Position numbers and translations under genes: made by a program
The notes under the pieces: generated by a model
Told to the model about the DNA's origin: nothing
The model's database searches: none
What the model saw: the letters and a program-made list of their open reading frames with translations, nothing else
Shown here: positions 1,372 to 52,908 of the stretch, piece after piece
Layout: every line of letters begins with the position of its first letter
Numbering within the stretch: the stretch's first letter is position 1
Assembly: GCA_028286525.1 (NCBI GenBank)
Contig: JAQBRL010000021.1
Span: 1 to 53,719 of the forward strand
Length of the DNA: 53,719 bases
Direction: 5' to 3'
Source of the DNA: Parcubacteria group bacterium
GTDB lineage: Bacteria > Patescibacteriota > Minisyncoccia > Phycocordibacterales > Phycocordibacteraceae

Positions 1372-3903
1372 ATGCTTGCTCCTATCAAGACGCGCTTCAT
1401 GGCTGATACCGATCTCATTGAACTCGTCACTCGCAAGCTTGCCTCCGGAGTTTCAGAGGAAAAGGTACGCGCGGATCTCATCACCAAGGGATACAGTGCT
1501 GGAGATATAAACGGCGCGTTCGCCATCCTCAAACTCGAGGCGAACCCGCTTACAGCCGGCAAATCCGAATTCGCCTCTCGAATGGAATCCTCCCCACCGC
1601 AAGGGGTGAATTGGTTCGTCGTGATACCGGTGCTGGGCCTTATCCTCATCGCGGGGGCAGCCTATCTGTATCTGCCGCAAATAAAAACATCGGCCTCCAC
1701 TATGCTCGCGCGGTCGCTTGGCACGTCGACTCCGCTTACTAAGGAGCCATTCGTGCCTTTCAATCCGGTACCGACCCAGACCCCGAGCGCCACCGTCGCC
1801 GTCAATACGACTCCTTCCTGGAGCGCACGTCTTTACAGTGCATTTACCGGTACGCCCGCACCTAGCCCAACTGCGCCAACCGGATCGGCTTCTCCTGCAG
1901 CTACGCCTACGACCTCCGGCCAAACCCTAGCCGCCGCTCCTTCGGTATCGCTTTCAGCCGATGCGGTTTCGATACGGGCGGGGCAGACGGTCACGCTTGC
2001 CTGGACTTCGGAGCATGCCAGCAGCTGCGAGTCCACGGGCGGCTTTCCTACGAACGACCGCACGCACGGGAACGCCACGGTTCATCCGGTACTCAGTACC
2101 TCGTATGTCGTTATCTGCACCGGCCCGGGGGGAACGGCAAAAGCCCCGCTATTCATCACGGTGACCCCTGACGTCCCGACACCGACACCGACTCCAGTAC
2201 CTCCAACCGGGCCTTCAAGCGTGAACCTTTCCGTGAACCCTGAATCCGTCCTTTCGGGAGGCAGCCTGACGCTCTCCTGGTCGACCGCTAACATTTCGTC
2301 CTGTACGGCAAGCGGGAATTGGACCGGCACGAAGGAACTTTCCGGCTCGCAAACCTTCACGAACATCACTACCGCTCAGTCCTTCACCCTCACGTGCAAG
2401 GCTCCACTCACTACGATCACTAAAAATATAACGGTACCGGTTACCACTCCGGCCACCGTGCCGCCAAGCCCTCCGCCCTCGCCACCCCCTCCCGCACCGG
2501 TCATCGTGCCGGTACCTCCTGTACCCCCTGGCAGCTACGCGGTATACCCGGGATGCCAAGCACCCGCTACCTCCTATGCCAATACGATATATGTGGACCC
2601 CGCGCATGGAAGCGATACGGGTGACGGCACGCAAGCGACTCCGTACAAGACGCTTGAAACTGTGCTTGCACAGAACAAGCTGAAGACGGACACCCATGTC
2701 GTGATGCTGCCGGGCGACCACGGATTCATCTTCGCTGATAGCTATTCGAACACCACGCTTTCGAATGCATCGAGCGGCTGGGTCTGGCTCGATTTCCAGC
2801 CAGGCGCGACTGCGGACTGGATGGACATACGCAGCATGCATCGCTGGCTCATAACCAACGCCGTGGTAAGTAGAGCACCTGCCGGGCGCACCCTTCTTTC
2901 AATGGGAAGTTCAGGAAATATGGTCATTGCTGATTCGCAGCTCTATACCGCAAAGGATTCTTCGGGATGGACGATAGACCAATGGCTGAATGACGCGAAT
3001 AGCGGTATTTCCGGAGATGATTCGGTGTGCGTTTCCCTATTGCGGAACCGTATTACGAACGTACGCTTCGGCATCGCCGTATTCAGCCGAGTGAATTCGC
3101 CGACACCATCAGACAACAGCATCAAGGTGCTTATGGAGGGGAACGTCATCAAGAATTTCTCTGCAGACGGCATACGCCCGAACGGCACCGATATCACTAT
3201 CCACAATAACGGCATATACGATGCCTATGTCAGCGGCCCGGATGGCGACTGGAATCATGATGACGGGATACAGGGCTTTGCGACCGGCGGAGCGGTGTAC
3301 GGCAATGTCATTATCGATCACAACTGGGTGCAGGAAAGCACGGGCGGTCCGAATCGCGCACTCTATTCGAGCTTGCAGGGAATCTCTTCCTTCGACGGGG
3401 TGTTTACGGATAGCCGCGTCACGAACAATGTCGTCCTGGTCTCGGCCCCTCATGGCATCTCCTGGTATAACGTCCGCAATTTCACCATCGACCATAACAC
3501 CATCGCGAATATAACGAATAACGGGAACCCCACGTGGGTACTCATGATCAATAGCGATTCCAGCGACGTGGTATCGAATAATACGGGGTCGAGCTTCTCG
3601 GGCGGACCTGGCTCTACCGTTACCCTCATCAATAACGTGGAAGTCCCCGATCCCGCAGCCGTCTACACCACCTTCGATCCTGCGAGCAATCAATACAACT
3701 TCACCCCGAAGCCGGGCTCCATCCTGGATGGCCTCGATGTCGGTGCGCAGCACACGAGTCCGGTTACGCTTAGGACGCCTATACGCGGCTCGGGGACGAC
3801 CCTTCTTGCGTCAGCGGCCGCAGCGCCGGTGAAGCTCGGACTCTGGGCGACCTTCCTCGCGATGATTCACTCGCTCCTGGAAGCGCTGCGTTCGGTTCTT
3901 TAG
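1372..3903 (+). CDS. Large membrane-anchored surface protein (N-domain, TM, P/T linkers, two Ig-like repeats, right-handed beta-helix domain)
   Basis: 843-aa ORF. AGGAG lies 8 nt before the 1372 ATG; an alternative start at 1399 fits the paralog alignment. Two ~70-aa repeats (LSADAVSIRAGQTVTLAWTS.. / LSVNPESVLSGGSLTLSWST..). PPSPPPSPPPP linker. Repetitive NN/IxN beta-helix-like region. Confidence 0.8.
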   Translation: MLAPIKTRFMADTDLIELVTRKLASGVSEEKVRADLITKGYSAGDINGAFAILKLEANPLTAGKSEFASRMESSPPQGVNWFVVIPVLGLILIAGAAYLYLPQIKTSASTMLARSLGTSTPLTKEPFVPFNPVPTQTPSATVAVNTTPSWSARLYSAFTGTPAPSPTAPTGSASPAATPTTSGQTLAAAPSVSLSADAVSIRAGQTVTLAWTSEHASSCESTGGFPTNDRTHGNATVHPVLSTSYVVICTGPGGTAKAPLFITVTPDVPTPTPTPVPPTGPSSVNLSVNPESVLSGGSLTLSWSTANISSCTASGNWTGTKELSGSQTFTNITTAQSFTLTCKAPLTTITKNITVPVTTPATVPPSPPPSPPPPAPVIVPVPPVPPGSYAVYPGCQAPATSYANTIYVDPAHGSDTGDGTQATPYKTLETVLAQNKLKTDTHVVMLPGDHGFIFADSYSNTTLSNASSGWVWLDFQPGATADWMDIRSMHRWLITNAVVSRAPAGRTLLSMGSSGNMVIADSQLYTAKDSSGWTIDQWLNDANSGISGDDSVCVSLLRNRITNVRFGIAVFSRVNSPTPSDNSIKVLMEGNVIKNFSADGIRPNGTDITIHNNGIYDAYVSGPDGDWNHDDGIQGFATGGAVYGNVIIDHNWVQESTGGPNRALYSSLQGISSFDGVFTDSRVTNNVVLVSAPHGISWYNVRNFTIDHNTIANITNNGNPTWVLMINSDSSDVVSNNTGSSFSGGPGSTVTLINNVEVPDPAAVYTTFDPASNQYNFTPKPGSILDGLDVGAQHTSPVTLRTPIRGSGTTLLASAAAAPVKLGLWATFLAMIHSLLEALRSVL

Positions 3904-4136
3904 CGTGCTGCCGCCGCAATGCGGGCGGGAAGCCAGTCCATCACTTTCTTGCGATGAACATCGAGCGACCAATCCTCGGTCTTGAAGAAAGACGCGTGGG
4001 TCTCCTTGAACTCCTCGAGGAGCGCTTTAGAAGCACGCGGAAAGGTGACCGGAAGATCGGCGTTATAGATTTTGAGGAAATCAGCGAGTGAGCAGGGCTT
4101 TTCGCTGCGCAGTCTATCGAGATCAGGAAGTTTCAT
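3900..4136 (-). CDS. Hypothetical protein (78 aa)
   Basis: ORF track 3900..4154. The internal ATG at 4136 is preceded by TATTAT plus 8 nt (leaderless-type pattern). No recognisable family. Confidence 0.5.
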   Translation of the reverse strand: MKLPDLDRLRSEKPCSLADFLKIYNADLPVTFPRASKALLEEFKETHASFFKTEDWSLDVHRKKVMDWLPARIAAAAR

Positions 4137-4202
4137 TCCTTTTGATAATACCACGAAGTTCGAAAGCTGTCAGCTCTCGCGGGGTGGGTCCCCGTACGGG
4201 GC

Positions 4203-4325
4203 TTAATTATCCTTCTTTCCGACCTTGGCAGCGAGCATGACACGCTTGGCAGCGCGGCGCTTCGCGGTCTTGCGCGTGCGGTTGGGGTTGTTCTTGGAGC
4301 TGACTCCGTGGCCGTTCTTTACCAT
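4203..4325 (-). CDS. Small basic protein, 40 aa (below the ORF-track cutoff)
   Basis: Own translation: MVKNGHGVSSKNNPNRTRKTAKRRAAKRVMLAAKVGKKDN. CCCCGTACGGGG hairpin just downstream. No clear SD. Confidence 0.3.
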   Translation of the reverse strand: MVKNGHGVSSKNNPNRTRKTAKRRAAKRVMLAAKVGKKDN

Positions 4326-4517
4326 AACGAAATATTACTTGTTCCCCGTAGAGTACTACGCAATGGCCGAAAAAGCCCGTCCCGCTTTATATCCATACGG
4401 GAGTGCCGTCTCGTATGCGGCGGGGGAGCGGTATACTTTTATCTATAGATCATGCACACCCTCCGTACCCTTTCCTCTGCTCCCTGCTAGTGATGAACGC
4501 TGCGGCATACCTCTATC

Positions 4518-5003: not shown

Positions 5004-5862
5004 GCGTCGCTAACTCGCCTTTGTCGCGTGCAAGTTCCGCGTTCAAGGCGCTTTTCTTCCGAGCGTGCTCCGCTTTGCGCGCGGTTGCCGCGCGACCCTG
5101 ATCGCTCCGAGTCCTCTCATCCTGCAGTTCGGAGTGTTCTTGCGCGCGCGCGGTTTCAAGTTCGTGCGTATGCGCAGCAAGCTCGCTTGCGAGCGTTCGT
5201 TCCTCTTCCTTCAGTCGCCGGGCTTTTTCCGTGAGTTCCTGTACGGTCTCTTCCTCGGTGCGTACTGCGTTCGTGCCGCCCTTGGCCCGAACCTCGGCAA
5301 GCTCGCGCTCGGTCGTTTCGAGGTCATGCGTGAGCGTCTGCAGACGTGCCTTCTTCTGCTCGAGCTGGCGTTCCAGCTCGTCGATGCTGCGGGTGAGGGT
5401 GCTCGCTTCCGCGCGTTCCTGCGCAAGCGTCGCGGTCGTTTCGCTCACGGTACGAGTGGCGTTCGCGCCCGCCTGGCGGCTCTCTTCGAGGCGTCGCGCG
5501 TGCGAGCGCAGCTCGGTGTCGGTAGTTTGCTCGTCGGTCTCCGTACGCTTGAGCTTGAGTGTGACTTCTCGAATGAGACGCTCGAGCGCAGAGACTTTAG
5601 TACCGGTACCGCGCGCGGAAGGGGCGCGAGACGCTCGTACGACGCGCTCAAGATGGCTCTCCTCGAGTTCGATGGCTCCGAGCGCGCGCTCCTTGATGCG
5701 GATGCGCTCCTCGACCTGACGGATCTTCACCTGGACGGCATTCTTTCGCTGCCGCTCCCGTTCCGCTTTCTGGCGTCCTTGCTCTTCGATCGCGAGTTTG
5801 GTCTCCCGTTTCGCCTCGTCGCGCAGTCGCGCGGTGTCATCCTGGAGGGGGTTATAGGCCAT
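4984..5862 (-). CDS. Coiled-coil protein (E/R/K/A/L/T-rich)
   Basis: 292 aa with heptad-like charged composition throughout. CATACT lies 7 nt upstream of the ATG. The long + strand ORF opposite looks like a GC shadow. Confidence 0.65.
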   Translation of the reverse strand: MAYNPLQDDTARLRDEAKRETKLAIEEQGRQKAERERQRKNAVQVKIRQVEERIRIKERALGAIELEESHLERVVRASRAPSARGTGTKVSALERLIREVTLKLKRTETDEQTTDTELRSHARRLEESRQAGANATRTVSETTATLAQERAEASTLTRSIDELERQLEQKKARLQTLTHDLETTERELAEVRAKGGTNAVRTEEETVQELTEKARRLKEEERTLASELAAHTHELETARAQEHSELQDERTRSDQGRAATARKAEHARKKSALNAELARDKGELATLMRELR

Positions 5863-5962
5863 ACGAATAAGTATGAATCACCCTGGCTGCGGAGGGAAGT
5901 CCCGAACCGGCGATTACCAGCATGGGGAGAGGAATGCATCCAGCGAGTGATACAGTGTCGCC

Positions 5963-6547
5963 ATGGACCCGACAGACCAAGAGGCCGTCGCGGCGACGCT
6001 CGCGGATCGCCACTCGTTCTCGCTCCTCGTGGAGCGCTATCAACTGCCGCTCTCGCGGTACGTCGCGCGGCTCGGGAACCTCGATCCCGATACGGTAAAA
6101 GACATCCTGCAAGAAGCGTTCATCAAGACGTACCTGAATCTGAATGATTACGACCCCGCCCTGCCGTTCAGTTCGTGGCTCTATCGCATCGCGCACAACG
6201 AGACCATGATGCATTTCCGCCGGCAGAAGAGCCGCCCGCAGGTGCTGAAGCATGAAAGCGACATGACCCTCTTCGAACAGATCCCCGACGAACTGAATAT
6301 CTTCGAGGAAGGGGACGCGCGGCTGCGGGGCGAGCGGATACAGCGTGCGCTCCAGGACCTCAAGCCGCAGCATCGCGATGTCCTTATCCTCAGGTTCTTC
6401 GAGGATAAGAGTTACGAGGAAATATCGGACATCCTCCGTATCCCGCAGGGTACGGTGGCGACGCACCTCGCGCGCGGCAAAACCGCCCTGGAACGGCGTT
6501 TACGCCAAGAACATATACGCGACGTATACTATGGAAACGATGGATGA
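5963..6547 (+). CDS. ECF-type RNA polymerase sigma factor
   Basis: Region 2 (DILQEAFIKTY..FSSWLYRIAHNE) and region 4 HTH (SYEEISDILRIPQGTVATHLARGKTAL). TACAGT lies 6 nt before the ATG. Confidence 0.9.
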   Translation: MDPTDQEAVAATLADRHSFSLLVERYQLPLSRYVARLGNLDPDTVKDILQEAFIKTYLNLNDYDPALPFSSWLYRIAHNETMMHFRRQKSRPQVLKHESDMTLFEQIPDELNIFEEGDARLRGERIQRALQDLKPQHRDVLILRFFEDKSYEEISDILRIPQGTVATHLARGKTALERRLRQEHIRDVYYGNDG

Positions 6548-8273: not shown

Positions 8274-8654
8274 TCATCTGCCGGCAACGCGGAAATTCAA
8301 ATAGAGATTCATAAGATAGTTCCAGCTTCCTTCCACGAGCGCGATGAGGATGCGGCTGACGAGGTAATTAAGAAGGAATACCTGCACGAGTATCCATATG
8401 GATACGGTCACCATCAGAAGGCCTACTCCGGCAATGATGAGAAAATATACGTATCCGAGACCCAAGGAGCGTTCTGAGCCGATGAAGACGAAGTGCCTGC
8501 TGAGCACGTAATTGGTCGTCGTCGCCACGATGAATGCGAACCCGGCAGCAAGTACGTATTGGACGTGGAAAATCTGCACCAGCAGGGTAAGGAGCCCGAG
8601 GTCAAAGAGAAAGGTGGGCAACGTCACCGCAATGTATTTCAGAAGCCGCGCCAT
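8274..8654 (-). CDS. GtrA-family membrane protein
   Basis: 126 aa with 4 TM helices and a typical GtrA-like layout (..NYVLSRHFVF..). TATAGT lies 6 nt upstream of the ATG. Confidence 0.75.
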   Translation of the reverse strand: MARLLKYIAVTLPTFLFDLGLLTLLVQIFHVQYVLAAGFAFIVATTTNYVLSRHFVFIGSERSLGLGYVYFLIIAGVGLLMVTVSIWILVQVFLLNYLVSRILIALVEGSWNYLMNLYLNFRVAGR

Positions 8655-8785
8655 GGGTGAACTATAGGTGAGATCCGCGTATCTATCTAGTTCGTGCGCA
8701 TGCTCGCTCCAGTACCCCGAAAAAAGAAGCTCTTGTTGCTAGCAGATATGCAGAGGTCCCCAGGATCGGGGACCTCGCGGTGAAA

Positions 8786-9025
8786 TCAATTGTTCACAGC
8801 CTTGAGCTTGAACGGCTCCAGCTTTTTGTTGATGCAGGCATAGAGCGCAGCTTGCGATGAACCCGCCTTCATTTCGGCAGAGCAGGTTTTCCATGCCTCC
8901 GCGAACTTTTCCTGGGCCTCTTTGGGGCCGAGGGAGCCGGTGTTCAAGACTTGGAGTTCAGCAGCTGCGCTTGTCGAGAGCAGGGAAAGCACCGCCGCGA
9001 ACATTGCCGCCCGTTTGTACTTCAT
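8786..9025 (-). CDS. Small secreted protein (2 Cys), GC-rich orphan
   Basis: MKYKRAAMFAAVLSLLSTSAAA signal peptide. AAGGAG lies 6 nt before the ATG at 9025. GAGGTCCCC..GGGGACCTC hairpin downstream. Confidence 0.6.
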   Translation of the reverse strand: MKYKRAAMFAAVLSLLSTSAAAELQVLNTGSLGPKEAQEKFAEAWKTCSAEMKAGSSQAALYACINKKLEPFKLKAVNN

Positions 9026-9179
9026 CTTCAACTCCTTGTCTCATTCCTCTCATCAGTAAATACCTCGCAAAGCCGATGTCAAATGCGTTGCTGGCTAGAG
9101 CATGTTCGAACCTGGCTCGTATAAGAAGACCGCCACGTCTGGGGACGTGGCGGTCTGAAGAACGGCGGGGAAGTAAGTA

Positions 9180-10349
9180 TTAATGCGAACCGAGATACAT
9201 ACGCGTTATCGGACCGAAGTTACCGATGGCAGGCGATATTCCCACATTCGCTTGATATTCAGCGAGGGCTGCACGCGTCAGCGCGCCGAAATAGCCGGTA
9301 GCGCCAGCTGAAGCGAGCCTGCCGGCTGCGGAGCCGGTGCTGCGGGATATCAAGAACTGCTGCAAGAAGGTCACCTGGCCGTTACGCATCCCTTGGCGCA
9401 GATCGATTCCAATGGTCTGGACTTGGGTACTGGGCGAAGAAACCATGCCGTTCGCGCCTGTGTTGGTGTTTACGGATGTGGTCACCGTAGTCGTGGTCGG
9501 AGACGGTGAAGCAGATGACGAGGAGGATGAAGTCGTGGTCGTATTGGTCGTGGTTGTAGGAACTGGCGGCGCGACCGTCACAGCCGCGCTCGATCCTGAA
9601 GGCGCGGTAACGGCATTCGAATCGAGCGTAACCGCGGTCTGGGCGAGCGCGCGTCCTTCGAGCGACGCGCCCGTATTCAAGACGATCGCGGTCTGGTCGA
9701 GGATATTTCCTTTGAAGCTCGCGGTCGTGCCGATGGTCGTTTGTCCGGCAACTACCCAGAAGACATTCTGCGCTTGCGCACCTCCGGCAAGCACGATGTG
9801 CACGCCCGAAGCTACGTTCAAGCCCTGCGCTATCTGAAGTATCCAGACATCGTTCGCGCTTCCGGAGAGCGTAACGTCGGTCGGCACGGTCACCCCTGTG
9901 CCCCATTTATATACGCCGGGAGCGAGCGTAAGGCCCCCGATATTGCCCGCCCCGAGTTCGGTCACGTTTGGCGCGCGGCCAGCTGCGTCCGTGTAGGCGG
10001 TCTGCATGTCGAGTACGGCGGTCGTAAGGGCGGAAGGGGTAGGGTTCGCGTAGTCGGACGCATAGAGCTTTCCAGTAACGAGCGCGGATGTGGAATAGGC
10101 GCCAGCTGCAGGAAGCGTCAGCGCGAAGCCGGTGAGGTAGCTTGCGGCGGCTGGACTAAGTCCGATGTCGCCCGTGACCGAGGTAGAGCCCGTGGTCGAG
10201 ACCCCGGTCTTCGTCAGGATGGCGTAATTGCCTGCGGTCCCGAGATTGACTGCCGCCGGTCCTGCCGCGAGCGCTAGAGTAGGGATAATGAGACTGAACG
10301 CTAAAGAGACAGCGACAAGCGCTGCCGAGGCAGTAGTATTGGTTTTCAT
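9180..10349 (-). CDS. Secreted DUF3494 (ice-binding-like beta-solenoid) protein with C-terminal peptidoglycan-binding domain
   Basis: LGTAGNYAILTKTGVSTTG..TGDIGLSPAA..GNILDQTAIVLNTGASLEGRALAQTAVTL is typical of DUF3494. T/S-rich linker. C-terminal GYFGALTRAALAEYQ is PG_binding_1-like. Start taken at MKTNTT. Confidence 0.8.
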   Translation of the reverse strand: MKTNTTASAALVAVSLAFSLIIPTLALAAGPAAVNLGTAGNYAILTKTGVSTTGSTSVTGDIGLSPAAASYLTGFALTLPAAGAYSTSALVTGKLYASDYANPTPSALTTAVLDMQTAYTDAAGRAPNVTELGAGNIGGLTLAPGVYKWGTGVTVPTDVTLSGSANDVWILQIAQGLNVASGVHIVLAGGAQAQNVFWVVAGQTTIGTTASFKGNILDQTAIVLNTGASLEGRALAQTAVTLDSNAVTAPSGSSAAVTVAPPVPTTTTNTTTTSSSSSSASPSPTTTTVTTSVNTNTGANGMVSSPSTQVQTIGIDLRQGMRNGQVTFLQQFLISRSTGSAAGRLASAGATGYFGALTRAALAEYQANVGISPAIGNFGPITRMYLGSH

Positions 10350-11451: not shown

Positions 11452-11500
11452 TGCTTAAAACCATACCACCCCGACCCTGATAAAAGCCTAAACGAAGTCA

Positions 11501-11533
11501 TCCGTTGGATGGAGGATGTTCGAACCTTGTATA
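11501..11533 (-). repeat. Cassette repeat R7
   Basis: Minus strand: TATACAAGGTTCGAACATCCTCCATCCAACGGA. Confidence 0.75.
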
Positions 11534-11744
11534 CTATTTGAATGAAAAGCCTGAAGTTGGATAAGTCGAGAAAGCTCTTCGTGCTAAGCGTATTAATTAT
11601 CTTGGTATCTCTCGGTAAAATCCTCTTCGATCTCCATAATCATTACCTGATTTGTACCGTCCGTGAGGGAATTAAAACCTGCTGGTAAAGATCGGCTCCG
11701 CGAGTAAGCGAAGCTTGTCGCACTCGCCTCATTTCGCTCACTCT

Positions 11745-11766
11745 GCTTCGCTGGGTGAAGTGTATA
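11745..11766 (-). repeat. Cassette repeat R6 (truncated copy)
   Basis: Minus strand: TATACACTTCACCCAGCGAAGC. It lacks the GGTTCGAACATC segment. Confidence 0.5.
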
Positions 11767-11807
11767 AAAGAAGCCACCCGACAGGGCCGGGCGGCTCCAT
11801 CGGGTGG
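11763..11807 (-). terminator. Intrinsic terminator after the methyltransferase cassette
   Basis: CCACCCGA..TCGGGTGG stem followed by CTTCTTTTATAC on the minus strand. Confidence 0.65.
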
Positions 11808-11816
11808 GGTTGACCC

Positions 11817-12524: not shown

Positions 12525-12599
12525 TTTCAATGGCCCTCCCGAGCCGGGTTGCTGGAAAAGAACTTCGGAAGCACCATACCATTTATATATAAAATGTCA

Positions 12600-12636
12600 G
12601 CTCCTGGCTGGAAGATATTCGAACCCGGTGTGTATA
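12600..12636 (-). repeat. Cassette repeat R5
   Basis: Minus strand: TATACACACCGGGTTCGAATATCTTCCAGCCAGGAGC, followed by CTGACA-16nt-TATGGT. Confidence 0.75.
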
Positions 12637-12719
12637 AAAAGAAGATGACCGCCCTCTGGGAGTGCGGCCATCGGGGGAGCGGCGAGGAAGTTTCTCCGCC
12701 AGGTGACCGCGAGTGGGTG

Positions 12720-17771: not shown

Positions 17772-17780
17772 AGGGTGACT

Positions 17781-42333: not shown

Positions 42334-43094
42334 ATGCCGACTATCTTCGTGCGACGTATGGAAAGCGCGAGTGCCTTGGAGCCCAATGTTTCTCCGATGC
42401 GTCCAGCAAGCGCGCGCATGTAGGTGCCTGAGCCGCATGCGACCTTGAGTTTCAGTATTCGATAGGGACGGTCGTGCTCGAAAACCTCCTGCCAGCTCTT
42501 CTTCACTGCTTCGATGCGGAAATCAGCGCCAAGCGCCTTCGATGGCTGATCGCTTGTGGGGGCGAGCGCAAGCAGCGAAGCGATGCGCTGCTTTAGTTTC
42601 CGAGTTGAATACGGGGAGGAGCCACGATATCTGATGGAATGGATAGTCTCCTCGTGCATCGGTATCTCGATGGTATCGAGCGTACCCTCAAGCGCGTAGA
42701 GGAAAAGCGGTTTTCCTGCGACGGTCTTCGAGGAGTAGATAGGGTAAGGACGGGTATGGGTACCGACCTCCTCTCCGAGAATGCGTTTAATATCGCTCCT
42801 CGTCAGCATCGTTTCTTGCGGCGAGCGCGTCACGATACCAAGAATGTCTCCCGTGTCGCTCCCGACATCCAGCAGCACTTCTATCTCATACGTCTTATCG
42901 AGTCCTATGTACTCCTGCTGCCGCTTGCACTCCTCTCCCAGAAGCACCAAGAGTTTTCCGGAAGCCATCGGATCGAGCCGGCCCGCGTAGCTGGCCGCCA
43001 CGTTCGCGTAGTTCGGATGGTGCGCTTTCCATAGCTCGATAGCCTCGAGCGGCGTCTGGCCGATCTTCTTGTCGAGAAGCACGGTTTTCTTCAT
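42330..43094 (-). CDS. truB: tRNA pseudouridine(55) synthase
   Basis: ..AGRLDPMASGKLLVLLGE.. catalytic Asp motif. Start MKKTVLL. TATACT lies 6 nt before the ATG. Confidence 0.9.
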   Translation of the reverse strand: MKKTVLLDKKIGQTPLEAIELWKAHHPNYANVAASYAGRLDPMASGKLLVLLGEECKRQQEYIGLDKTYEIEVLLDVGSDTGDILGIVTRSPQETMLTRSDIKRILGEEVGTHTRPYPIYSSKTVAGKPLFLYALEGTLDTIEIPMHEETIHSIRYRGSSPYSTRKLKQRIASLLALAPTSDQPSKALGADFRIEAVKKSWQEVFEHDRPYRILKLKVACGSGTYMRALAGRIGETLGSKALALSIRRTKIVGI

Positions 43095-43154
43095 CAGGTA
43101 AGTATACAAAGACTTCACCCCGCAAGCGTTCTGCTGTGCGGGGTGCGTGCCTAT

Positions 43155-43526: not shown

Positions 43527-43612
43527 CGACGTCCAAAAGTATTATAGCACACAATTCAGTAATTAAAATGTTCGGGCCGGACGACTCTAGGAGTCATCCG
43601 GCCCGGGAAGGT

Positions 43613-44158
43613 TCACAGCAGCGGTTGCTGCTGTGCGCGAAGGAGCTGCGCGGCTTTCCGACCGCGCTCCGTCGGGGTGAGCGGCTTGCGGGCTTTTTCC
43701 GCATTCTCCGCCTTCGTCTCTTGGCCTTTGCGGGCCCAGAGCCGTCGAAGCGCCTTGGTCAGGGCCTCCGGTTCGTAGTTGATGTTCCGGACGGTGCCCA
43801 GCCATTGGCTGGCGTAGCCGATCAACTGCTTATCGGTGAAGCGGTAACCAAGGCCAGCGTCGCCAAGGGTCCGTCCCAGCCAGGTATTGAAGAGAGAAAG
43901 GTGGACCTTCGAGACGTTCGCGATGGCGGACTCGAGCCGGAAGTGTTCCGCAGCTTTCGCCTGGGCATTCTGTAGCTGCCCGCGACCGATGTAGCGCTCG
44001 GGACTGATATCGGATTGCCGATGCGACGGAATTTCGATCGAGACGCGTTGCGCGGTGTCGTCCTCCATGCGGAGGAAGGTGACGCTGCAGCCCGCTCTCA
44101 ATTTCACCGTGACGCGATTGGGATCGCGCGGATGGACATAGAGTTCGCTTAGCTGCAC
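43613..44158 (-). CDS. Hypothetical protein (181 aa), orphan with basic C-terminal tail
   Basis: GTG start 7 nt after GGGAG. K/R/Q-rich C-terminus (KGQETKAENAEKARKPLTPTERGRKAAQLLRAQQ). No family recognised. Confidence 0.5.
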   Translation of the reverse strand: MQLSELYVHPRDPNRVTVKLRAGCSVTFLRMEDDTAQRVSIEIPSHRQSDISPERYIGRGQLQNAQAKAAEHFRLESAIANVSKVHLSLFNTWLGRTLGDAGLGYRFTDKQLIGYASQWLGTVRNINYEPEALTKALRRLWARKGQETKAENAEKARKPLTPTERGRKAAQLLRAQQQPLL

Positions 44159-44235
44159 GTGCTAGCTCCCACGTAATTACACAGAGCAAAATCGCTCTAT
44201 GTCAATAGTACAACAGAATTGTAGAAAAAGCAAGC

Positions 44236-44691: not shown

Positions 44692-44963
44692 GCGTCGTGC
44701 TTAGGCTGGATCTGATAATGCTTATGAAGATGGATGAGGTCTTGGCGGATATTCTCTATGACCTTCGCTTCGATAGGAGCGATGGTAAGGAATCCATTCT
44801 CGCAGGTACGGATGCTTTCTTCGAGGAAACCCATGACCGTGGCCAAAAGCGGAAAATAATCCCCGGTCTTTATATGGAACTCGAGTCGCTCGAGACGTAC
44901 GGGTTCGTCCGCGGTGTCCGTCTGCTGGGCATACGGCTCGGCAAAGGCGTTAGTGGGGCTCAT
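44688..44963 (-). CDS. Hypothetical protein (91 aa), coupled to the yqeY-like gene
   Basis: ATGA overlap with the downstream gene. TATAGT lies 6 nt before the ATG. Confidence 0.55.
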   Translation of the reverse strand: MSPTNAFAEPYAQQTDTADEPVRLERLEFHIKTGDYFPLLATVMGFLEESIRTCENGFLTIAPIEAKVIENIRQDLIHLHKHYQIQPKHDA

Positions 44964-45010
44964 GCCTCCACTATATCATCGCCTCCGCACCTCGCGGTAT
45001 ACTGGAGCAT

Positions 45011-46069
45011 ATGGATATGGTCTGGGTCGCTATCATCATCGGTATTCTAATCCTCATGCAGGGCGTGGGGCTCTATCTCATGATGCGCAAGCGCGAAAAG
45101 CCTTCAGGGGACGACGGCAGCGGACCTCTTCTCATGCAACGGCTTGAAGGGCTCGAGCGCACGCTCGATTCCCGCATGTCGGAGTCTGCTAAGCAGATGC
45201 ACGAGACGGTGCGTAGTCAGCTCGGAGAATCCTCGCGCCTCATCAAGGAAATCACTACGGAACTCACTTCCGTGAAGGAAATCGGCCGGCAGACCCAGAC
45301 GTACGCCGAGCAGCTGCAGTCGCTTCAGGATCTTCTCAAGAACCCGAAGCAGCGCGGCATCCTCGGCGAGTACTACCTCGAGACGGTGCTCAAGAACGTG
45401 CTGGCGCCCGGCATGTACCAGATGCAGTACGCCTTCAAGAATGGGGAGATAGTGGACGCTGCGGTATTCATTCAGGAGAAGATTGTTCCTATCGACTCGA
45501 AATTCTCGCTTGATAACTACAATCGCTTCGTCTCCACGCCTGTCGGCAGCATCGAGCGAGCCGCAGCGGAAAAAGCGTTCGTGAACGATCTCAAGCTCCG
45601 TATCACGGAAACGGCGAAATACATCCGGCCGGAAGAGAACACTATGGACTTCGCATTCATGTTCATTCCCTCTGAAGGCATCTATTACGACCTGTTGACG
45701 AATCAGGTGGGGGCAGGAGAAGAGGAGAACCTCATCCAGCGCGCAGCAGGGAAGTACAAGGTCATCATCGTCTCACCGACCTCGTTCCTTGCATATCTGC
45801 AGACCGTATTGCAAGGACTCAAGGCGATGCAGATAGAGCAACGTGCCGAAGAGATACAGAAACGGGTAGGGGAGCTCGGCAAGCACCTCGGAAGCTACGA
45901 AGATTTTTATAAGAAGCTGGGGAATGCCCTGGGCACCGCAGTCTCGCACTACAATAGCGGCTATAAGGAACTCGGCAAGATAGACAAGGATGTGTACCGT
46001 ATCGCGGAAGAAAAAATAGGTATCGAGCAGGAGCTGCTCGAGAAGCCTGGTGTGCTTGAACTGGACTAA
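45011..46069 (+). CDS. rmuC: DNA recombination protein RmuC
   Basis: N-terminal TM and coiled coil. ..QRGILGEYYLE..PIDSKF..FMFIPSEGIYY..VSPTSFLAYL. TATACT lies 7 nt before the ATG. Confidence 0.9.
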   Translation: MDMVWVAIIIGILILMQGVGLYLMMRKREKPSGDDGSGPLLMQRLEGLERTLDSRMSESAKQMHETVRSQLGESSRLIKEITTELTSVKEIGRQTQTYAEQLQSLQDLLKNPKQRGILGEYYLETVLKNVLAPGMYQMQYAFKNGEIVDAAVFIQEKIVPIDSKFSLDNYNRFVSTPVGSIERAAAEKAFVNDLKLRITETAKYIRPEENTMDFAFMFIPSEGIYYDLLTNQVGAGEEENLIQRAAGKYKVIIVSPTSFLAYLQTVLQGLKAMQIEQRAEEIQKRVGELGKHLGSYEDFYKKLGNALGTAVSHYNSGYKELGKIDKDVYRIAEEKIGIEQELLEKPGVLELD

Positions 46070-46467: not shown

Positions 46468-46552
46468 ATCTGCACCATATACCAAGCGGCCGCGCCCCAT
46501 CCTGGGACGCGGCCTTGCTTTCTAGGGCCTAAACCCGTACTATACGGGAACT

Positions 46553-46885
46553 ATGGAATTCGCAGTTATAAAGACCGGAGGCAAGCAGTACGTGGTCGCC
46601 CCAGGCGATCTCGTCACTATCGAGAAGCTGGGTCGTGGCGCAGCCACCCTCGATCTCAAGAAAGGAGACCCTGTCACGTTCGAGGACGTGCTTCTTACGG
46701 ACGATGGAAAGGCGACGAACGTCGGCACCCCGATGATCTCAGGCGTGAAAGTCACCGCGACCGTTTTCTCGGTCGGACGCGCCAAGAAGGTGGAAGTCGT
46801 GAAGTACAAGGCGAAGAGCCGCTACCTCAAGCGCCGTGGCCACCGCCAACCGTTCGTGAAAGTGAAGATCGACGCAATCGCATAA
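46553..46885 (+). CDS. rplU: 50S ribosomal protein L21
   Basis: MEFAVIKTGGKQYVV..KYKAKSRYLKRRGHRQPF. Confidence 0.95.
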   Translation: MEFAVIKTGGKQYVVAPGDLVTIEKLGRGAATLDLKKGDPVTFEDVLLTDDGKATNVGTPMISGVKVTATVFSVGRAKKVEVVKYKAKSRYLKRRGHRQPFVKVKIDAIA

Positions 46886-47776: not shown

Positions 47777-49141
47777 CTAAAACTCGCCGGCGAGGTCGCC
47801 ATATCCCGACTTATCGACGGGCATGAAGGTGGCGCGCTTCTCGTCGAAGTAGAGGTCGCATTTACCGACGGGACCATTACGGTGCTTCTCCACGAGTATT
47901 TCGGCGATATTCGGCCGGTCGCTATCCGGATTGCGCTTATCGTCGCGGTGGATGAACATCACCACGTCCGCATCCTGCTCGATGGAACCGGAATCGCGAA
48001 GGTCAGAAAGACGCGGCTTGCCGCCACGCTGCTCCACGGCACGCGAGAGCTGCGAGAGGGCGATGACCGGCACCTCGAGCTCGCGCGCCAGATGCTTGAG
48101 CGAGCGGGATATCTCCGTGACCTGCTGCACCATCGATGCGTCCGCTTTGGTATTCGTAGGCGCCATGAGCTGGAGGTAGTCGACGATGATCATGCCGATA
48201 CCGCGCTCGCGCTTCAGCCGTCGTGCGACCGCGCGCATGGCGAGGATGTTATTACCAGGCTTATCGTCGATATAAATAGGCGCTTTCGAAAGGGTTTCGA
48301 GCGCGTCGCGTATCTTATTGAAATCATCCTCGGCATGTATGGCGCCCGTGCGCATCTTCCAGGAGTTCACGTTACTTTCGGCCGCGAGCATGCGGTCTAC
48401 CAGCTGCTCAGAGCTCATTTCGAGGGAGAATATACCGACCGGGACGTTGTGCTTCACGGCGGCGTTGCGCGCGATGTCGAGCGCGAGCGAAGTCTTACCT
48501 ACGGACGGCCGCGCCGCGAGTATGACGAGATCGGAGGGATGGAATCCCGACAGGAGATTGTCGAGGTCCGGGAAACCGGAAGGAACGCCGCGGATGCTTC
48601 CGTCCGACTTAGAGAGCGCCTCGATACGTTCCCACGCACCTTCGACTTTTTCTGAAATGGCAACGAACTTGTGCGAAGCGGACGAGTTGCCGATGGCCAT
48701 TATCTTCTTCTCCGCATCGTCGAGCAGCTGCACGACATCCTGCGCGTCATCGTATGCGGATTCCGTTATCTCATACGAAGTGTCGATCAAGGAACGCATG
48801 ATGTGCTTGCGCGAGACGAGGTCGGCGTAGTGTGCGAAGTTGCCGGGAGCAGGGGCGGACCCCGCAAGCTCCGCGATGTAGGCGCGGCCGCCCATGCGCT
48901 CGAGCGTGCCGTTATTCGTCAGGCGCTCGGAGAGGGAAAGGATGTCGATGGGTTCGCCGCGTTCCGAAAGCTCACGCATGGCTTCGAAGATGATGCGGTG
49001 CTTCTCGGCGTAGAACGAGTCGCCATGAATGGTGTCCGAGACGTCATGGATAGCGTCGGGCTTCAGGAGGAGGGCGCCCAGCAGCGCACGCTCGGAATCG
49101 AGGCTTTGCGGAGGAACGCGGACAGCAGTGGAGTCGGCCAT
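47777..49141 (-). CDS. dnaB: Replicative DNA helicase DnaB
   Basis: PQSLDSERALLGALL.., Walker A ARPSVGKTS, IIVDYLQLM and SQLSRAVEQR. Confidence 0.95.
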   Translation of the reverse strand: MADSTAVRVPPQSLDSERALLGALLLKPDAIHDVSDTIHGDSFYAEKHRIIFEAMRELSERGEPIDILSLSERLTNNGTLERMGGRAYIAELAGSAPAPGNFAHYADLVSRKHIMRSLIDTSYEITESAYDDAQDVVQLLDDAEKKIMAIGNSSASHKFVAISEKVEGAWERIEALSKSDGSIRGVPSGFPDLDNLLSGFHPSDLVILAARPSVGKTSLALDIARNAAVKHNVPVGIFSLEMSSEQLVDRMLAAESNVNSWKMRTGAIHAEDDFNKIRDALETLSKAPIYIDDKPGNNILAMRAVARRLKRERGIGMIIVDYLQLMAPTNTKADASMVQQVTEISRSLKHLARELEVPVIALSQLSRAVEQRGGKPRLSDLRDSGSIEQDADVVMFIHRDDKRNPDSDRPNIAEILVEKHRNGPVGKCDLYFDEKRATFMPVDKSGYGDLAGEF

Positions 49142-50601
49142 TACTCCCGATTGTACGACGCGCGAGAGGGAGTGACTACCGTGCCGGAAGGGCCGTCGTC
49201 CACACGATATCCCCTGTACTCGAGTTCTTCGCGGATCTCGTCCGAAAGCTTGTATTCCTTGGCTTGCCGCGCCTCGTCTCGACGCAGTATCAACACCTGC
49301 ACCTCCTGGGGCAGGTCTTCGGTGGCCACCGGTCCCTCCACTTCAGGAGGGTTCACGAGCGCGAGGCCGAATATCGCGTCCGCAGCGGTGAGCACGCCGA
49401 GCTTCTCGGCCGCACTCATTTCCTCGTCGCGGAGCGTCTCCCACAGGAGCGCGAGCGCTGCGGGGGTCGCGAGATCGTCACGCACTACCGCTACCATGCG
49501 CCGCGCGGCTTCGGAGTCGGTACTCTTCTCCTTGGCTTCGTCCATGACCTCGCACGAAAGCCTCCAGAGGCGCTGCAGCGCTTCATGCGCCGCGGCAATC
49601 GCTTCCCATGAGAAGGAGACGGGCGTACGGAAACTTGCCTGATAGTAGAAATAGCGCAGGGAGAGCGGATGGAAGCCGCGCGCAGTGATATCGGAAAGCA
49701 GTATCTCGTTGCCAAGGGATTTCGATATCTTCTCGCCTTCGATGGTGATAAAGGCTTCGTGGAGCCAGTAGCGTGCAAGGGGTCTTCCGGTCGCTACCTC
49801 CGACTGGGCTATTTCGTTGTTGTGATGCACGGGAATGTGGTCCATGCCGCCGGTGTGGATGTCTATCTCGCGCCCGAGGATGGCGCGTATCATCGCGGAG
49901 CATTCGATATGCCAGCCCGGATTGCCCGAGCCCCAGGGACTCGGCCACTGCTGCAGGTCGCCGGGCTTGGCTTTGCGCCAGAGCGCGAAGTCATGGAGAT
50001 TGCGCTTGCCGGCTCCTACTTTGATGCGTGCGCCGCCCATGAGCTTGACCTGCGCGATGCCGCCGAGCTTTCCGTAGTCCGGAAGCTTCGCGGTGTCGAA
50101 ATACACGCCGTCGCTGGCTTGATAGGCATACCCCTTCTCCTCGATGCTTTCTATCATCGCTATCTGCTCCTGGATATATTCGGATGCGCGGGGGAACAGG
50201 ATGTGATTCGTATCGATATTGAGCGACTTGATGTCCGTGAGGTACTGCTTGGTGTATCGGTTCGCGATCTCTGCAGGCGAGACCTGCTCGCGCTCGGCCC
50301 CCACTTTCATCTTGTCCTCGCCCTCGTCCCCGTCGCCCACGAGGTGCCCGACGTCCGTGATGTTGATGACGCGGCGTACATGGAAGTCAGCGGCCAGAAG
50401 CACGCGCGCAATGGTGTCGGCAAAAAGCGCGGCGCGCAGGTTCCCGATGTGCTGCGGCCCGTAGACCGTCGGGCCGCAGGAATACATCGACGCGACTCCC
50501 GGCTTCAGCGATACGAACAGGTCCTTCTTACCGGTCAGGGTATTGGTAAAGAAGATGGGAGCCGCGCTCGGCGGGACGACGGGTTTCTTGAACGGCCACA
50601 T
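49141..50601 (-). CDS. cysS: Cysteinyl-tRNA synthetase
   Basis: CGPTVYGPQHIGN (HIGH-type), WHIECS and KISKSLGN (KMSKS). The stop overlaps the dnaB start (TAATG). Confidence 0.95.
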   Translation of the reverse strand: MWPFKKPVVPPSAAPIFFTNTLTGKKDLFVSLKPGVASMYSCGPTVYGPQHIGNLRAALFADTIARVLLAADFHVRRVINITDVGHLVGDGDEGEDKMKVGAEREQVSPAEIANRYTKQYLTDIKSLNIDTNHILFPRASEYIQEQIAMIESIEEKGYAYQASDGVYFDTAKLPDYGKLGGIAQVKLMGGARIKVGAGKRNLHDFALWRKAKPGDLQQWPSPWGSGNPGWHIECSAMIRAILGREIDIHTGGMDHIPVHHNNEIAQSEVATGRPLARYWLHEAFITIEGEKISKSLGNEILLSDITARGFHPLSLRYFYYQASFRTPVSFSWEAIAAAHEALQRLWRLSCEVMDEAKEKSTDSEAARRMVAVVRDDLATPAALALLWETLRDEEMSAAEKLGVLTAADAIFGLALVNPPEVEGPVATEDLPQEVQVLILRRDEARQAKEYKLSDEIREELEYRGYRVDDGPSGTVVTPSRASYNRE

Positions 50602-50638
50602 AATGAATGTACTTTACCATTTCATCCCGCGAGCGGCT

Positions 50639-51556
50639 CTAGAGCCACTTCCTGGATTTGAAGAACACGAATGCAGTAAGGCTTACCAGGAGCCCGAGAA
50701 CCACGATGATCCAAAAGGCGTGCGGATCTTCCTGGAAGGGAAGCGCGCGGAAGTTCATATTGAAAAGAGAGGAGAGCACGGTCATGGGGGTGACGAGGAA
50801 GGCCACGACCGTGAGCCGTTTGACGATCTCGTTCTGGGAGGCATTCAGGAGCGAGTCGTTCGTAGCGCGCAATTCGGTCGCGGCCGCTCGATACGAACGC
50901 ACGAGGTCGGCGACGTGCTCGCGTTCGCCCTCGATGTGCGCCGCATGCTCACTGAATTTCTTTCCGAAGAAGGCAGGCGCGGTCAGCCCTTGCAGGAATT
51001 GCGCGAGCGGCTCTTGATGGCGTGCGAGCGTGGTCTGGAAGCGCAGGAGCACGCGGCCCACGTCCGAAATGCCGTGGACCGTGTCGCGTTCCTTCCCGGC
51101 GAACATGTCGGTTTCGATGCGGTCGAGCACGCGCGCGGCATGCTCCATCTCTTCGCGTATCGCGCCGTACATACGGCGCATGAGACGTTCGAGCAGTTCG
51201 TCGGCATGCGCCGTGGCATGCGGAAGGCCGAGCAGCTCTTCGGCCTCGAAGACGCGGTGCAGGTTATGCAGGGTCTCGATTATCTCGTAGCGCGCGGTAA
51301 TGATGAAATGCTTGCCGACGATGAAATCGACTTCCTGCGTACGCGTGCCGCCCGCAGGGTCGGTAGTCGGGAAATGCAGTATCAAGTACTGATACTTGGG
51401 GAACGAGATGACGATGGGGTAGGGAGTGGGCGCGATTATCTCTTCCTCGATGCGTTCATCGATATTGAACTCGCGCATGACGCTATCGAGCTCCTCGTGC
51501 GACGGACTTTCGAGGTCCACCCACGTGATCTTTCCGCGCGTATGCCTCGTGACCAT
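50639..51556 (-). CDS. corA: CorA-family divalent cation transporter with NMN instead of GMN
   Basis: CorA layout with 2 C-terminal TM helices. The signature reads LFNMNF (codons 50753-50761) where YGMNF is expected. TATACT lies 6 nt before the ATG. Confidence 0.85.
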   Translation of the reverse strand: MVTRHTRGKITWVDLESPSHEELDSVMREFNIDERIEEEIIAPTPYPIVISFPKYQYLILHFPTTDPAGGTRTQEVDFIVGKHFIITARYEIIETLHNLHRVFEAEELLGLPHATAHADELLERLMRRMYGAIREEMEHAARVLDRIETDMFAGKERDTVHGISDVGRVLLRFQTTLARHQEPLAQFLQGLTAPAFFGKKFSEHAAHIEGEREHVADLVRSYRAAATELRATNDSLLNASQNEIVKRLTVVAFLVTPMTVLSSLFNMNFRALPFQEDPHAFWIIVVLGLLVSLTAFVFFKSRKWL

Positions 51557-51642
51557 TGCAGTAGTATACCGTCGCGCATGCGCGTACCGCGCGACTCGTT
51601 CCTCTATAAGTGGATAGAACGTGCGTGATATACTCCCGGGTA

Positions 51643-52908
51643 ATGGACGACGAATTGCAGATTCCCAAGGAGCGCACTCCGTTCGCGAGAACGGTGAAGC
51701 TCGGCATCGCGTTCGCGCTCGTGCTCGTCGTCGGGTTCGTGGGCGGCATGAGCGTGTCCGCTGCAGGCGGCACGAAGCTCCTCTCGAGCATCCCGCTCAT
51801 CGGCGACGGACTCGATGCCACGCCTTCGACCGATGCGAACTTCGAGGATTTCTGGAAAGTCTGGAATGCGCTGGGTAATCGCTTCGTCGAGACCCATGCC
51901 TCGAGCACGATACCGGATACCAAAGGCAAGATGTGGGGCGCGATACAGGGCCTCACGGCTTCCTATGGCGACCCGTACACCGTGTTCTTCCCGCCGACCC
52001 AGGCGAAAGCGTTCCAAGAAGAGGTGACCGGTAACTTCGGCGGCATTGGTGCCGAGCTGGGCGAGAGCAAGGACAACATCCTCACCATCATCGCGCCGCT
52101 CAAGGGCTCTCCGGCAGAGAAGGCGGGACTGCGCGCCGGTGATCTGGTCATCGCTATCGATGGTAAATCCACCGAAGGGCTTTCCACCGATGCGGCAGTG
52201 AGCAAGATACGCGGAACGGTAGGTACGGTCGTAAAGCTCACTATCGTACGGGACCAGAAGACGCAGGACATCAGCGTGACGCGCGATACGATCCAAGTGC
52301 CGACTATCGAGAATTCATACGACGCGAAGACCGGCGTGTACTACATCGCGCTCTACCAATTCACGGAGACGAGCGGCGCGCAGTTCGGCAAAGCCTTCAA
52401 GGAGTTCCAGGCGTCCGGCTCCAAGAAACTCATACTCGACCTACGCGGCGACCCGGGTGGCTACCTCGACCAAGCGACGCTCATCGCCGGGTACTTCCTT
52501 CCGAAGGGACAGACCGTCGTAACGGAAGACTATAAAGGGAAGCAGGAAAATATCGTGCATAAGAGCCCAGGGCAGGGCGGACTCCCCGCGGGCACGCAGA
52601 TAGCGGTACTCATCGACCAGGGCTCGGCCTCGGCAAGCGAGATCCTCGCAGGCGCGCTTCAGGACACGCACACGGCGACGCTCATCGGCACGCGCTCATT
52701 CGGCAAGGGTTCCGTACAGGAGCTCATCGATGTGGACGGCGGCTCGCTGAAGATTACGGTCGCGCGCTGGCTCACGCCGAACGGTCGCTCCATCAGCGAC
52801 GGTGGCCTTACCGCTGATATCAAGGCCGACCGTACCGCTGCTGATGCTGCTGCGGGGAAGGATCCTCAGAAGGACAGGGCCGTTCAGTTCCTCACCACCG
52901 GCAAATAA
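51643..52908 (+). CDS. Carboxy-terminal processing peptidase (S41)
   Basis: TM anchor, a PDZ domain (GSPAEKAGLRAGDLVIAIDG), GSASASEILAGAL and FGKGSVQ. TATACT lies 8 nt before the ATG. Confidence 0.9.
   Translation: MDDELQIPKERTPFARTVKLGIAFALVLVVGFVGGMSVSAAGGTKLLSSIPLIGDGLDATPSTDANFEDFWKVWNALGNRFVETHASSTIPDTKGKMWGAIQGLTASYGDPYTVFFPPTQAKAFQEEVTGNFGGIGAELGESKDNILTIIAPLKGSPAEKAGLRAGDLVIAIDGKSTEGLSTDAAVSKIRGTVGTVVKLTIVRDQKTQDISVTRDTIQVPTIENSYDAKTGVYYIALYQFTETSGAQFGKAFKEFQASGSKKLILDLRGDPGGYLDQATLIAGYFLPKGQTVVTEDYKGKQENIVHKSPGQGGLPAGTQIAVLIDQGSASASEILAGALQDTHTATLIGTRSFGKGSVQELIDVDGGSLKITVARWLTPNGRSISDGGLTADIKADRTAADAAAGKDPQKDRAVQFLTTGK

Follow-up and report, generated by a model that had tools for sequence, protein, structure and literature searches.

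A -10-type hexamer abutting ATG start codons points to leaderless gene starts in a Patescibacteria genome fragment

The stretch of DNA analysed here (the window) spans positions 1 to 53,719 of contig JAQBRL010000021.1 from the Parcubacteria group bacterium assembly GCA_028286525.1, and the element in question is a hexamer resembling a bacterial -10 promoter box that lies 6-9 nt before the ATG start codon of many of its genes. The window has a GC content of 57.7% and carries approximately 60 genes along with one tRNA detected directly. Genes recognized by Pfam encode an ECF sigma factor, GtrA, a glutaredoxin (grx), HPF, Def and Fmt (def-fmt), MurA, two MreB proteins, MreC, PBP2, HolB, and Frr, as well as RseP, ProS, GreA, the mraZ-rsmH-ftsI-murF cluster, a DnaA-like protein, TruB, YqeY, RmuC, ribosomal proteins L21 and L9, RecR, DnaB, CysS, CorA, and an S41 peptidase, and these assignments agree with the gene names proposed in the initial annotation of this DNA. 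The nearest relatives of ProS all come from metagenome-assembled genomes (MAGs) of Patescibacteria, also known as the Candidate Phyla Radiation (CPR), led by ‘Parcubacteria bacterium C7867-004’ at 80% identity and followed by Kaiserbacteria and Paceibacterota MAGs; no exact match to the ProS product was found in the contig index searched. The window is a piece of a Paceibacteria-like Patescibacteria genome, and its sequence is itself present in soil metagenomes.

All 18 pairs of hexamer and spacer listed in the initial annotation are found in the sequence at the distances it gave (Table 1). Additional boxes precede the 39-aa gene, the anti-sigma-like gene, the 95-aa gene, PBP2, ftsI, dnaB, and an HNH-like open reading frame (ORF) within a tRNA intron, and weaker ones precede cysS, the genes for L21 and L9, and a 240-aa gene. 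When TATACT is searched for on both strands with no use of gene calls, an ATG follows at a spacer of 5-9 nt after 12 of its 16 occurrences, against an expectation of 1.3 ± 1.1 and a maximum of 6 in 300 second-order Markov simulations. Eleven of these 12 pairs open called genes, and the last opens a 48-aa ORF at 11542 that was not counted as a gene. Among 59 curated starts, TANNNT occurs at a spacer of 5-9 nt in 26, compared with 14 of 554 internal ATG codons (2.5%; p ∼5e-26), and CATACT at two further starts brings the -10 class to 28 genes. Other 5-nt spacer bins hold 0-6 of the 59 starts each, and within the class a spacer of 6 nt is the most frequent (11 genes), followed by 7 nt (6), 8 nt (5), and 9 nt (5), with hardly any below 6. 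Only four occurrences of TATACT lie away from starts, where composition predicts ∼16.6 in total, which suggests that selection may act against stray boxes, although TATACT was picked after inspection of the data and the p-value of its depletion is indicative only. The predicted start codons are independently supported by alignments of ProS, whose first aligned residue is residue 1 in nearly all loci, and by the onset of Pfam domains at residues 1-10 in Def, the glutaredoxin, GtrA, CorA, DnaB, L9, and L21.

Judged by its sequence properties, the hexamer looks like a sigma-70 -10 box rather than a signal read in the RNA. Of the 28 boxes in the window, 7 have the extended -10 motif TGn before them, compared with a background of 5.4% (p = 5.5e-4). 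In a pooled set of 180 box sites, drawn from the window and from relatives with a GC content of at least 0.5, G stands at -14 in 59% and TGn in 26%, and the commonest hexamers are TATACT (53), TACAAT (34), TATAGT (21), and TATAAT (10). Pooled spacers set in abruptly at 6 nt (80 sites), with 27 sites at 7 nt, 35 at 8 nt, and 38 at 9 nt. A spacer of 6 nt places +1 at the A of the ATG, and with a spacer of 7 nt that A becomes the eighth base; at a spacer of 9 nt a purine occupies the seventh base after the box in 30 of 38 sites, and 3-nt leaders are therefore predicted. ATG alone peaks after the box, with GTG, TTG, and CTG flat both in the window and in 35 related loci (564 kb, GC ≥0.5). A canonical TTGACA-16-TATACT promoter is found at one member, before a 32-aa micro-ORF, and the sequence TTTTGcc ∼18 nt upstream of the proS box is kept in many relatives. 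A two-box promoter model was dropped, the -35 element being weak in the window and marginal in the pooled set. The same box also lies 27-45 nt upstream of leadered genes, at a distance of 41 nt for HPF and of ∼27 nt for two cassette genes with Shine-Dalgarno (SD)-like motifs, and within the window it marks 26 of 48 operon-first genes vs 2 of 11 genes that abut or overlap an upstream gene (p = 0.045).

These properties bear on the proposal that the hexamer acts in the RNA, as a non-SD ribosome-binding element or A/U-rich enhancer within a leadered 5′ untranslated region (5′ UTR), comparable to the Bacteroidetes ‘group B’ motif or an S1 site. The hexamer does sit at the position of a ribosome-binding site (RBS), and SD motifs are not enriched at starts in either the window or its Paceibacteria-like relatives. 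However, the invariant positions are the T-A-n-n-n-T of a -10 box with TGn before it, operon-internal genes, which would be in most need of an RBS, seldom have the box, ATG is the sole start tolerated, the spacer has a hard lower limit at 6 nt, and the same box recurs 27-45 nt upstream of genes bearing an SD-like motif of their own. An RNA-level role is accordingly rated as highly improbable.

The box is kept in position at orthologous starts, and the flanking sequences diverge. It is present in 27 of 37 frr orthologues, 13 of 14 for PBP2, 5 of 5 for murA, 10 of 15 for holB, and 7 of 11 for def, and in 42 of 78 proS orthologues at a spacer of 5-9 nt (46 of 78 if 4-10 nt is allowed). Orthologues of operon-internal genes carry it in 0 of 18 cases for rsmH, 0 of 6 for fmt, and 3 of 24 for mreB-2, and a control spacer of 25-29 nt gives ∼0-17%. 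The orthologues also inform the possibility that the boxes are real promoters but that some genes start translation further downstream, so that the first codons would form a short leader. In murA a second ATG lies five codons on, preceded by CCAGGAA, which reads GGAGGAA in L081, a relative with shared synteny in which this second ATG is the called start, and tandem ATG codons also occur in rmuC, mreB-1, and the anti-sigma-like gene. Few genes are concerned, however; orthologues of proS, frr, holB, and def keep their residues from the box-adjacent ATG onward, the in-frame MPxxEM of MurA is conserved, and the SD-like motifs lie 1-2 nt from the downstream ATG, which is too close. Downstream initiation at these genes is thus improbable, if slightly less so than a role of the hexamer in the RNA.

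The spread of the box was surveyed with a simple gene caller in 68 Patescibacteria loci around proS (1133 genes), with a strict box defined as TAnAnT followed by ATG at a spacer of 6-9 nt. Such a box precedes 25% of the genes compared with 6% at a decoy spacer, and its frequency is similar throughout the named groups (15-29%). SD motifs are at or below the decoy level in Paceibacteria-like loci, whereas they reach 36-41% in Saccharimonadia and Magasanik/Moranii loci, where the decoy gives 22-24%; since 4-mer SD counts per locus are indistinguishable from the decoy level in high-GC loci, they were used solely for this comparison between groups. The box and SD modes replace each other at single genes: proS and frr carry a box in loci of the Paceibacteria-like kind, and an AGGAG-type SD in several that are Saccharimonadia-like. 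The survey also speaks to the suggestion that box and start codon co-occur by chance, or as an artefact of picking motif-adjacent starts. Part of the starts were indeed curated with knowledge of the motif, and weak hexamers such as TATCCT, TAGGAT, TACTAT, and TAAAGT might be random. Against this, the search for TATACT is unaffected by the choice of starts because it used no gene calls, and it yields a z-score of ∼9; together with the excess over decoy spacers and the kept position at orthologous starts, this refutes chance for the class as a whole. The probability of this reading is close to nil, although individual weak members may be due to chance.

The initial annotation described these gene starts as a leaderless design, a proposal that gains strong support from sequence and comparative evidence, namely the TGn motif, the restriction to ATG, the onset of spacers at 6 nt, the bias towards operon-first genes, and the orthologues. 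In an operational sense, leaderless messages are those with a 5′ UTR shorter than 6 nt (PMC4007540). The proposed mechanism is that sigma-70-type -10 boxes, with a clade consensus of TATACT > TACAAT > TATAGT, often with TGn and usually with no recognizable -35, would direct RNA polymerase to start at the A of the ATG (spacers of 6-7 nt) or 1-3 nt earlier (spacers of 8-9 nt). The resulting mRNAs would have no space for an SD site and would be translated in the leaderless manner, by a ribosome that carries initiator tRNA and binds the 5′-terminal AUG. This would apply to approximately half of the window's genes and slightly more than half of those that come first in an operon. Box-less, operon-internal genes are probably translated by coupling, because their stop and start codons overlap or abut, and a minority, mainly secreted orphans and island cassettes, would use a short leader that bears an SD-like motif. 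Overall, the leaderless reading is very probably correct: the position of the box, its statistics, its promoter-like features, and its conservation are shown directly, and the site at which transcription begins and the way the ribosome binds are predicted from them.

Several points weigh against it. In the sequencing runs searched, the organism and its relatives turned up in DNA runs only, and the three small metatranscriptomes of the source study contained nothing of the organism save a tRNA fragment. A -35 element with at least 4 of 6 matches to TTGACA occurs at 25 of 186 sites, vs 9-16 in controls, which is a weak signal, and it is weak within the window too. Starts of genes without N-terminal homology were chosen with knowledge of the motif, and the contrast between first and internal genes is weak when taken from the window alone. 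Furthermore, the genes with spacers of 8-9 nt that are rich in G (L9, L21, proS, and dnaB) could be SD-led from an upstream promoter. A wider claim, that AUG-only leaderless initiation is the default for first genes across Patescibacteria and that SD is essentially unused in the Paceibacteria branch, is more tentative, and its chances are put at a little under even. If true, it would connect an SD-independent, 70S-type mode of initiation with the reduced ribosomes and initiation factors of these ultra-small bacteria and with the shortness of their intergenic regions, and many of the publicly annotated CPR gene starts would be incorrect.

The remaining genes of the window do not form a single SD-dependent class. 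The box-bearing genes do lack a properly spaced SD site, as first reported, in that an SD-like duplex of -6 kcal/mol or stronger precedes just 2 of the 28, compared with 10 of 31 box-less genes (p = 0.023). A generic anti-SD was assumed in the duplex-energy tests, as no rRNA gene, and hence no 3′ end of 16S rRNA, is present in the window or in 81 related loci. SD-like motifs are not commoner at the 59 starts than at internal ATG codons (p 0.13-0.4), and a 5-mer SD is found at 5 of 59 starts vs a background of 4.5%, which places the window outside the SD-dominated ‘group A’. The claim of two initiation regimes is not supported in the form in which it was put; SD-like motifs avoid the -10 class, but there are three classes, with ∼20 genes carrying neither signal. 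Nine of these touch or overlap the gene before them, and translational coupling is probable for them; the leaders of the others (mraZ, greA, recR, HPF, mreB-1, and more) appear to be short, rich in AT, and free of SD.

A proposed coincidence of the two regimes with GC content was not borne out, the -10 class averaging 0.570 and the SD class 0.594 (Mann-Whitney p = 0.195), nor was a contrast in codon usage (GC3, p = 0.85), and the two genes with the lowest GC content, of 205 and 320 aa, are members of the -10 class. Most of the SD motifs originally cited are present, including GGGGA before the dnaA-like gene, but the 135-aa ORF (43568-43975, plus strand) has none and is probably not a gene. It overlaps almost completely with the 181-aa ORF on the opposite strand (43613-44158, minus strand), and at most one of the two is therefore a real gene; codon statistics favour the 181-aa ORF. 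Proteins of the SD class lack a Pfam match in 8 of 11 cases, vs 10 of 28 in the -10 class (p = 0.07). Several are secreted orphans specific to the clade, and three secreted orphans keep their SD-like motifs in L081 at ∼53% protein identity. A foreign origin of the GC-rich 254-aa gene was considered and rejected, its sole homologue being syntenic in a related Patescibacteria MAG, and it is a clade-specific orphan.

The pattern matches the known bacterial leaderless ‘group C’ architecture, as predicted here from sequence, in a lineage for which no such report was found. In the literature searched, no report of leaderless architecture in CPR/Patescibacteria was found, which is an absence there and not proof of novelty. 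Mycobacteria, a leaderless group of large genomes and much higher GC content, use both ATG and GTG starts. They resemble the window in having a TANNNT -10 without a clear -35 above the start codon, and at least a quarter of their transcripts begin at the start codon, according to the accounts of Cortes 2013 and Shell 2015 that are relayed in two further papers (PMC6028130, PMC4007540). In Deinococcus deserti, 60% of genes are leaderless as mapped by differential RNA sequencing (dRNA-seq), with the -10 directly upstream and no -35, SD sites in 62% of leadered genes, and GTG starts in 17% of leaderless genes (PMC4007540), and in Deinococcus radiodurans and Thermus a third of genes have a mutagenesis-validated -10 motif ∼6-7 bp upstream of the ORF (PMC12340547). 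The window shares with Deinococcus-Thermus a TANNNT box ∼6-7 nt before the start, no conserved -35, the coexistence with putative GGAG-type RBS genes and SD-less leadered genes, putative leaderless small ORFs, and starts probably misplaced by gene callers. It differs in belonging to Patescibacteria/CPR, in preferring TATACT over TATAAT-like boxes, and in using ATG only; moreover, transcription starts and -10 function are experimental in Deinococcus, whereas in the window both are predicted from sequence.

GeneMarkS-2 assigns Actinobacteria and Deinococcus-Thermus to ‘group C’, with 25-50% of operons predicted to be leaderless (PMC6028130), and no statement that CPR genomes were classified among its groups was found in the literature searched. 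As in ‘group C’, a dual model applies to the window, with a Pribnow box ∼6-8 nt before operon-first genes and other signals for internal or leadered genes, although internal genes are modelled there with an SD-type RBS and those of the window mostly have neither SD nor box. Low use of SD is shared with ‘group B’ of Bacteroidetes and Cyanobacteria, in which a motif precedes both first and internal genes of leadered mRNAs; in the window, by contrast, the box is mostly missing at internal genes.

Knowledge of CPR bacteria comes almost entirely from metagenome annotation, the quality of which hangs on models of start codons and promoters. If half of the genes are leaderless, SD-based callers will misplace starts and miss small leaderless ORFs, and predictions of signal peptides and N-terminal domains will suffer. 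A case in point is murA of L081 (12343), for which the public call begins at the second ATG, after GGAGGAA, and leaves out the conserved codons for MPxxEM, which start 9 nt downstream of a TACAAT box (window counterpart 19905-19920); this is likely a start mis-annotation caused by the box-abutting architecture. The proposed arrangement would also provide a simple promoter model (TGn-TATACT, 6-9 nt, ATG) for a phylum with almost no genetics, useful for expression constructs in the few cultivable members, and would bring a third major lineage of bacteria into the discussion of whether leaderless initiation is an ancestral trait or arose through genome streamlining.

Table 1. Putative -10 boxes and SD-like motifs at gene starts of the window, with the spacer to the start codon.
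Signal and gene	Positions	Strand	Remarks
TATTAT, 8-nt spacer, ATG of 78-aa gene (3900-4136)	4134-4150	-	TGG extended -10
TAATAT, 6-nt spacer, ATG of 39-aa basic protein gene	4323-4337	-	
CATACT, 7-nt spacer, ATG of 292-aa coiled-coil gene	5860-5875	-	divergent from ECF sigma gene, 100-nt gap
TACAGT, 6-nt spacer, ATG of ECF sigma factor gene	5951-5965	+	TGA extended -10
TATACT, 9-nt spacer, ATG of anti-sigma-like 159-aa gene	6525-6542	+	box within sigma gene 3′ end
TATAGT, 6-nt spacer, ATG of gtrA-like gene	8652-8666	-	
AAGGAG, 6 nt, ATG of 79-aa secreted orphan	9023-9037	-	-8.8 kcal/mol
GGGAGGG, 10 nt, ATG of methyltransferase	12522-12541	-	-10.8 kcal/mol
Cassette promoter TGTGATATAACT, ∼20-nt leader with GGAG, ATG of 137-aa orphan	13500-13544	-	
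TATACT, 7-nt spacer, ATG of 205-aa cassette gene	14206-14221	-	GC 0.44
Cassette promoter TGTGATATAACT, leader with AAGGGAG, ATG of 82-aa orphan	14601-14640	-	
TATACT, 9-nt spacer, in-frame ATG of HNH-like ORF in tRNA-Thr group I intron	15571-15588	-	
TATACT, 8-nt spacer, ATG of glutaredoxin-like gene	15718-15734	+	kept in L081
TATACT 41 nt before HPF start	15977-16026	+	ordinary promoter of leadered gene
TATAGT, 6-nt spacer, ATG of def (def-fmt operon)	17769-17783	-	TGT extended -10
TAAAAT, 6-nt spacer, ATG of 95-aa gene	18418-18432	-	3/4 orthologues
TACAAT, 7-nt spacer, ATG of murA (encodes MPGQEM...)	19918-19933	-	orthologues 5/5; L081
TGAGGGT, 8 nt, ATG of 177-aa secreted ‘OMP-like’ orphan	21620-21636	-	motif kept in L081
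AAAGGA, 9 nt, ATG of 254-aa secreted ‘OMP-like’ orphan	22543-22559	-	AAAGGGGG at same place in L081
TATACT, 6-nt spacer, ATG of holB	22666-22680	+	
AAGGGGA, 6 nt, ATG of 99-aa secreted orphan	23385-23400	+	kept in L081
TACACT, 6-nt spacer, ATG of frr	23757-23771	+	TGC extended -10
TATACT, 9-nt spacer, ATG of proS	27734-27751	+	-35-like TTTTGCC ∼18 nt upstream
TATTAT, 6-nt spacer, ATG of PBP2 (mrdA)	31105-31119	+	
TTGACA, 16 nt, TATACT, 7-nt spacer, ATG of 32-aa hydrophobic micro-ORF	34315-34352	-	full sigma-70 promoter
TAGAAT, 8-nt spacer, ATG of ftsI	36250-36266	+	
CATACT, 6-nt spacer, ATG of 320-aa membrane-anchored gene	39340-39354	+	GC 0.48
AGGAGG, 5 nt, ATG of 67-aa ORF (40719)	40717-40730	-	
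TATACT, 6-nt spacer, ATG of truB	43092-43106	-	
GGGAG, 7 nt, GTG of 181-aa orphan	44156-44170	-	
Back-to-back promoters, 47-nt divergent gap: TATAGT-6 of 91-aa/yqeY operon (-), TATACT-7 of rmuC (+)	44961-45013		
TACTAT, 9-nt spacer, rplU (L21)	46538-46555	+	weak; GGGAACT in spacer, SD reading possible
TACAAT, 8-nt spacer, ATG of dnaB	49139-49155	-	box within cysS 3′ end
TAAAGT, 9-nt spacer, cysS	50599-50616	-	weak
Divergent pair, 86-nt gap: TATACT-6 of corA (-), TATACT-8 of S41 peptidase gene (+)	51554-51645		
TAGGAT, 9-nt spacer, rplI (L9)	53156-53173	+	weak; AGGGGAACT possibly SD instead

The 32-aa micro-ORF, which together with its promoter spans 34219-34352 (minus strand), has the best promoter in the window and lies 83 nt upstream of a 140-aa gene without a signal of its own; it could encode a small membrane protein translated without a leader, or else a leader peptide. 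A group I intron of 555 nt interrupts the tRNA-Thr(UGU) gene (15012-15639, minus strand) after nt 33, within the anticodon loop; Rfam (RF00028) recognizes the intron at 15058-15305 with 66.5 bits, and ARAGORN detects the tRNA only if introns are permitted. The acceptor stem of the tRNA is lengthened by a perfect inverted repeat of 20 nt (15001-15020 and 15633-15652). The HNH-like ORF of the intron (15241-15573, minus strand) has the motif CVLLCANCHAEVHD and a weak Pfam HNH match under the cut-off (E = 0.0026); TATACT stands before its ATG at a spacer of 9 nt, and this homing-endonuclease gene thus shares the box-abutting design.

Downstream of the 3′ end of tRNA-Thr lie six copies of a ∼45-nt repeat (minus strand: TATACAAAACAGGTTCGAACATCCTCCAGCCAGCGGAGC), at 11501, 12600, 12986, 13563, 14245, and 14659, which resemble the T-arm and acceptor 3′ end of a tRNA. 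Most are followed by an orphan or accessory gene on the minus strand, and three have a -10-like box ∼20 nt past the repeat. The region from 11500 to 14700, with a GC content of ∼0.50, looks like a tandem cassette or integration island at tRNA-Thr, and no integrase was seen in it. Three copies of the repeat are also found in a Kaiserbacteria MAG (JARIGM010000035.1, locus L082).

A 557-aa sigma-70-like gene (regions 2 and 4; 24325-25998, plus strand; GC 0.49) lies between frr and rseP, bordered by a 4-nt gap and a 4-nt overlap. In L081, rseP follows frr after 2 nt, and a homologue of the sigma-like gene is found in only 1 of 80 loci, so that it looks like a gene inserted into the operon and lacking its own promoter. 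A similar case is the a/b-hydrolase gene at 27104 (GC 0.50, homologues in two loci). A secreted ice-binding-like protein (9180-10349, minus strand; PF11999, E = 2.6e-76), with a weak peptidoglycan-binding domain, is encoded by a gene with neither a -10 box nor an SD at its start. At the window edge, a gene for a PEP-CTERM-motif protein (11-808, minus strand) begins with TTG after an SD-like GAAGGGG, and has a GC3 of 0.92 compared with ∼0.72 for the window. Sorting signals of the PEP-CTERM type would, to our knowledge, not be expected in a CPR genome, and the gene could be a recent acquisition.

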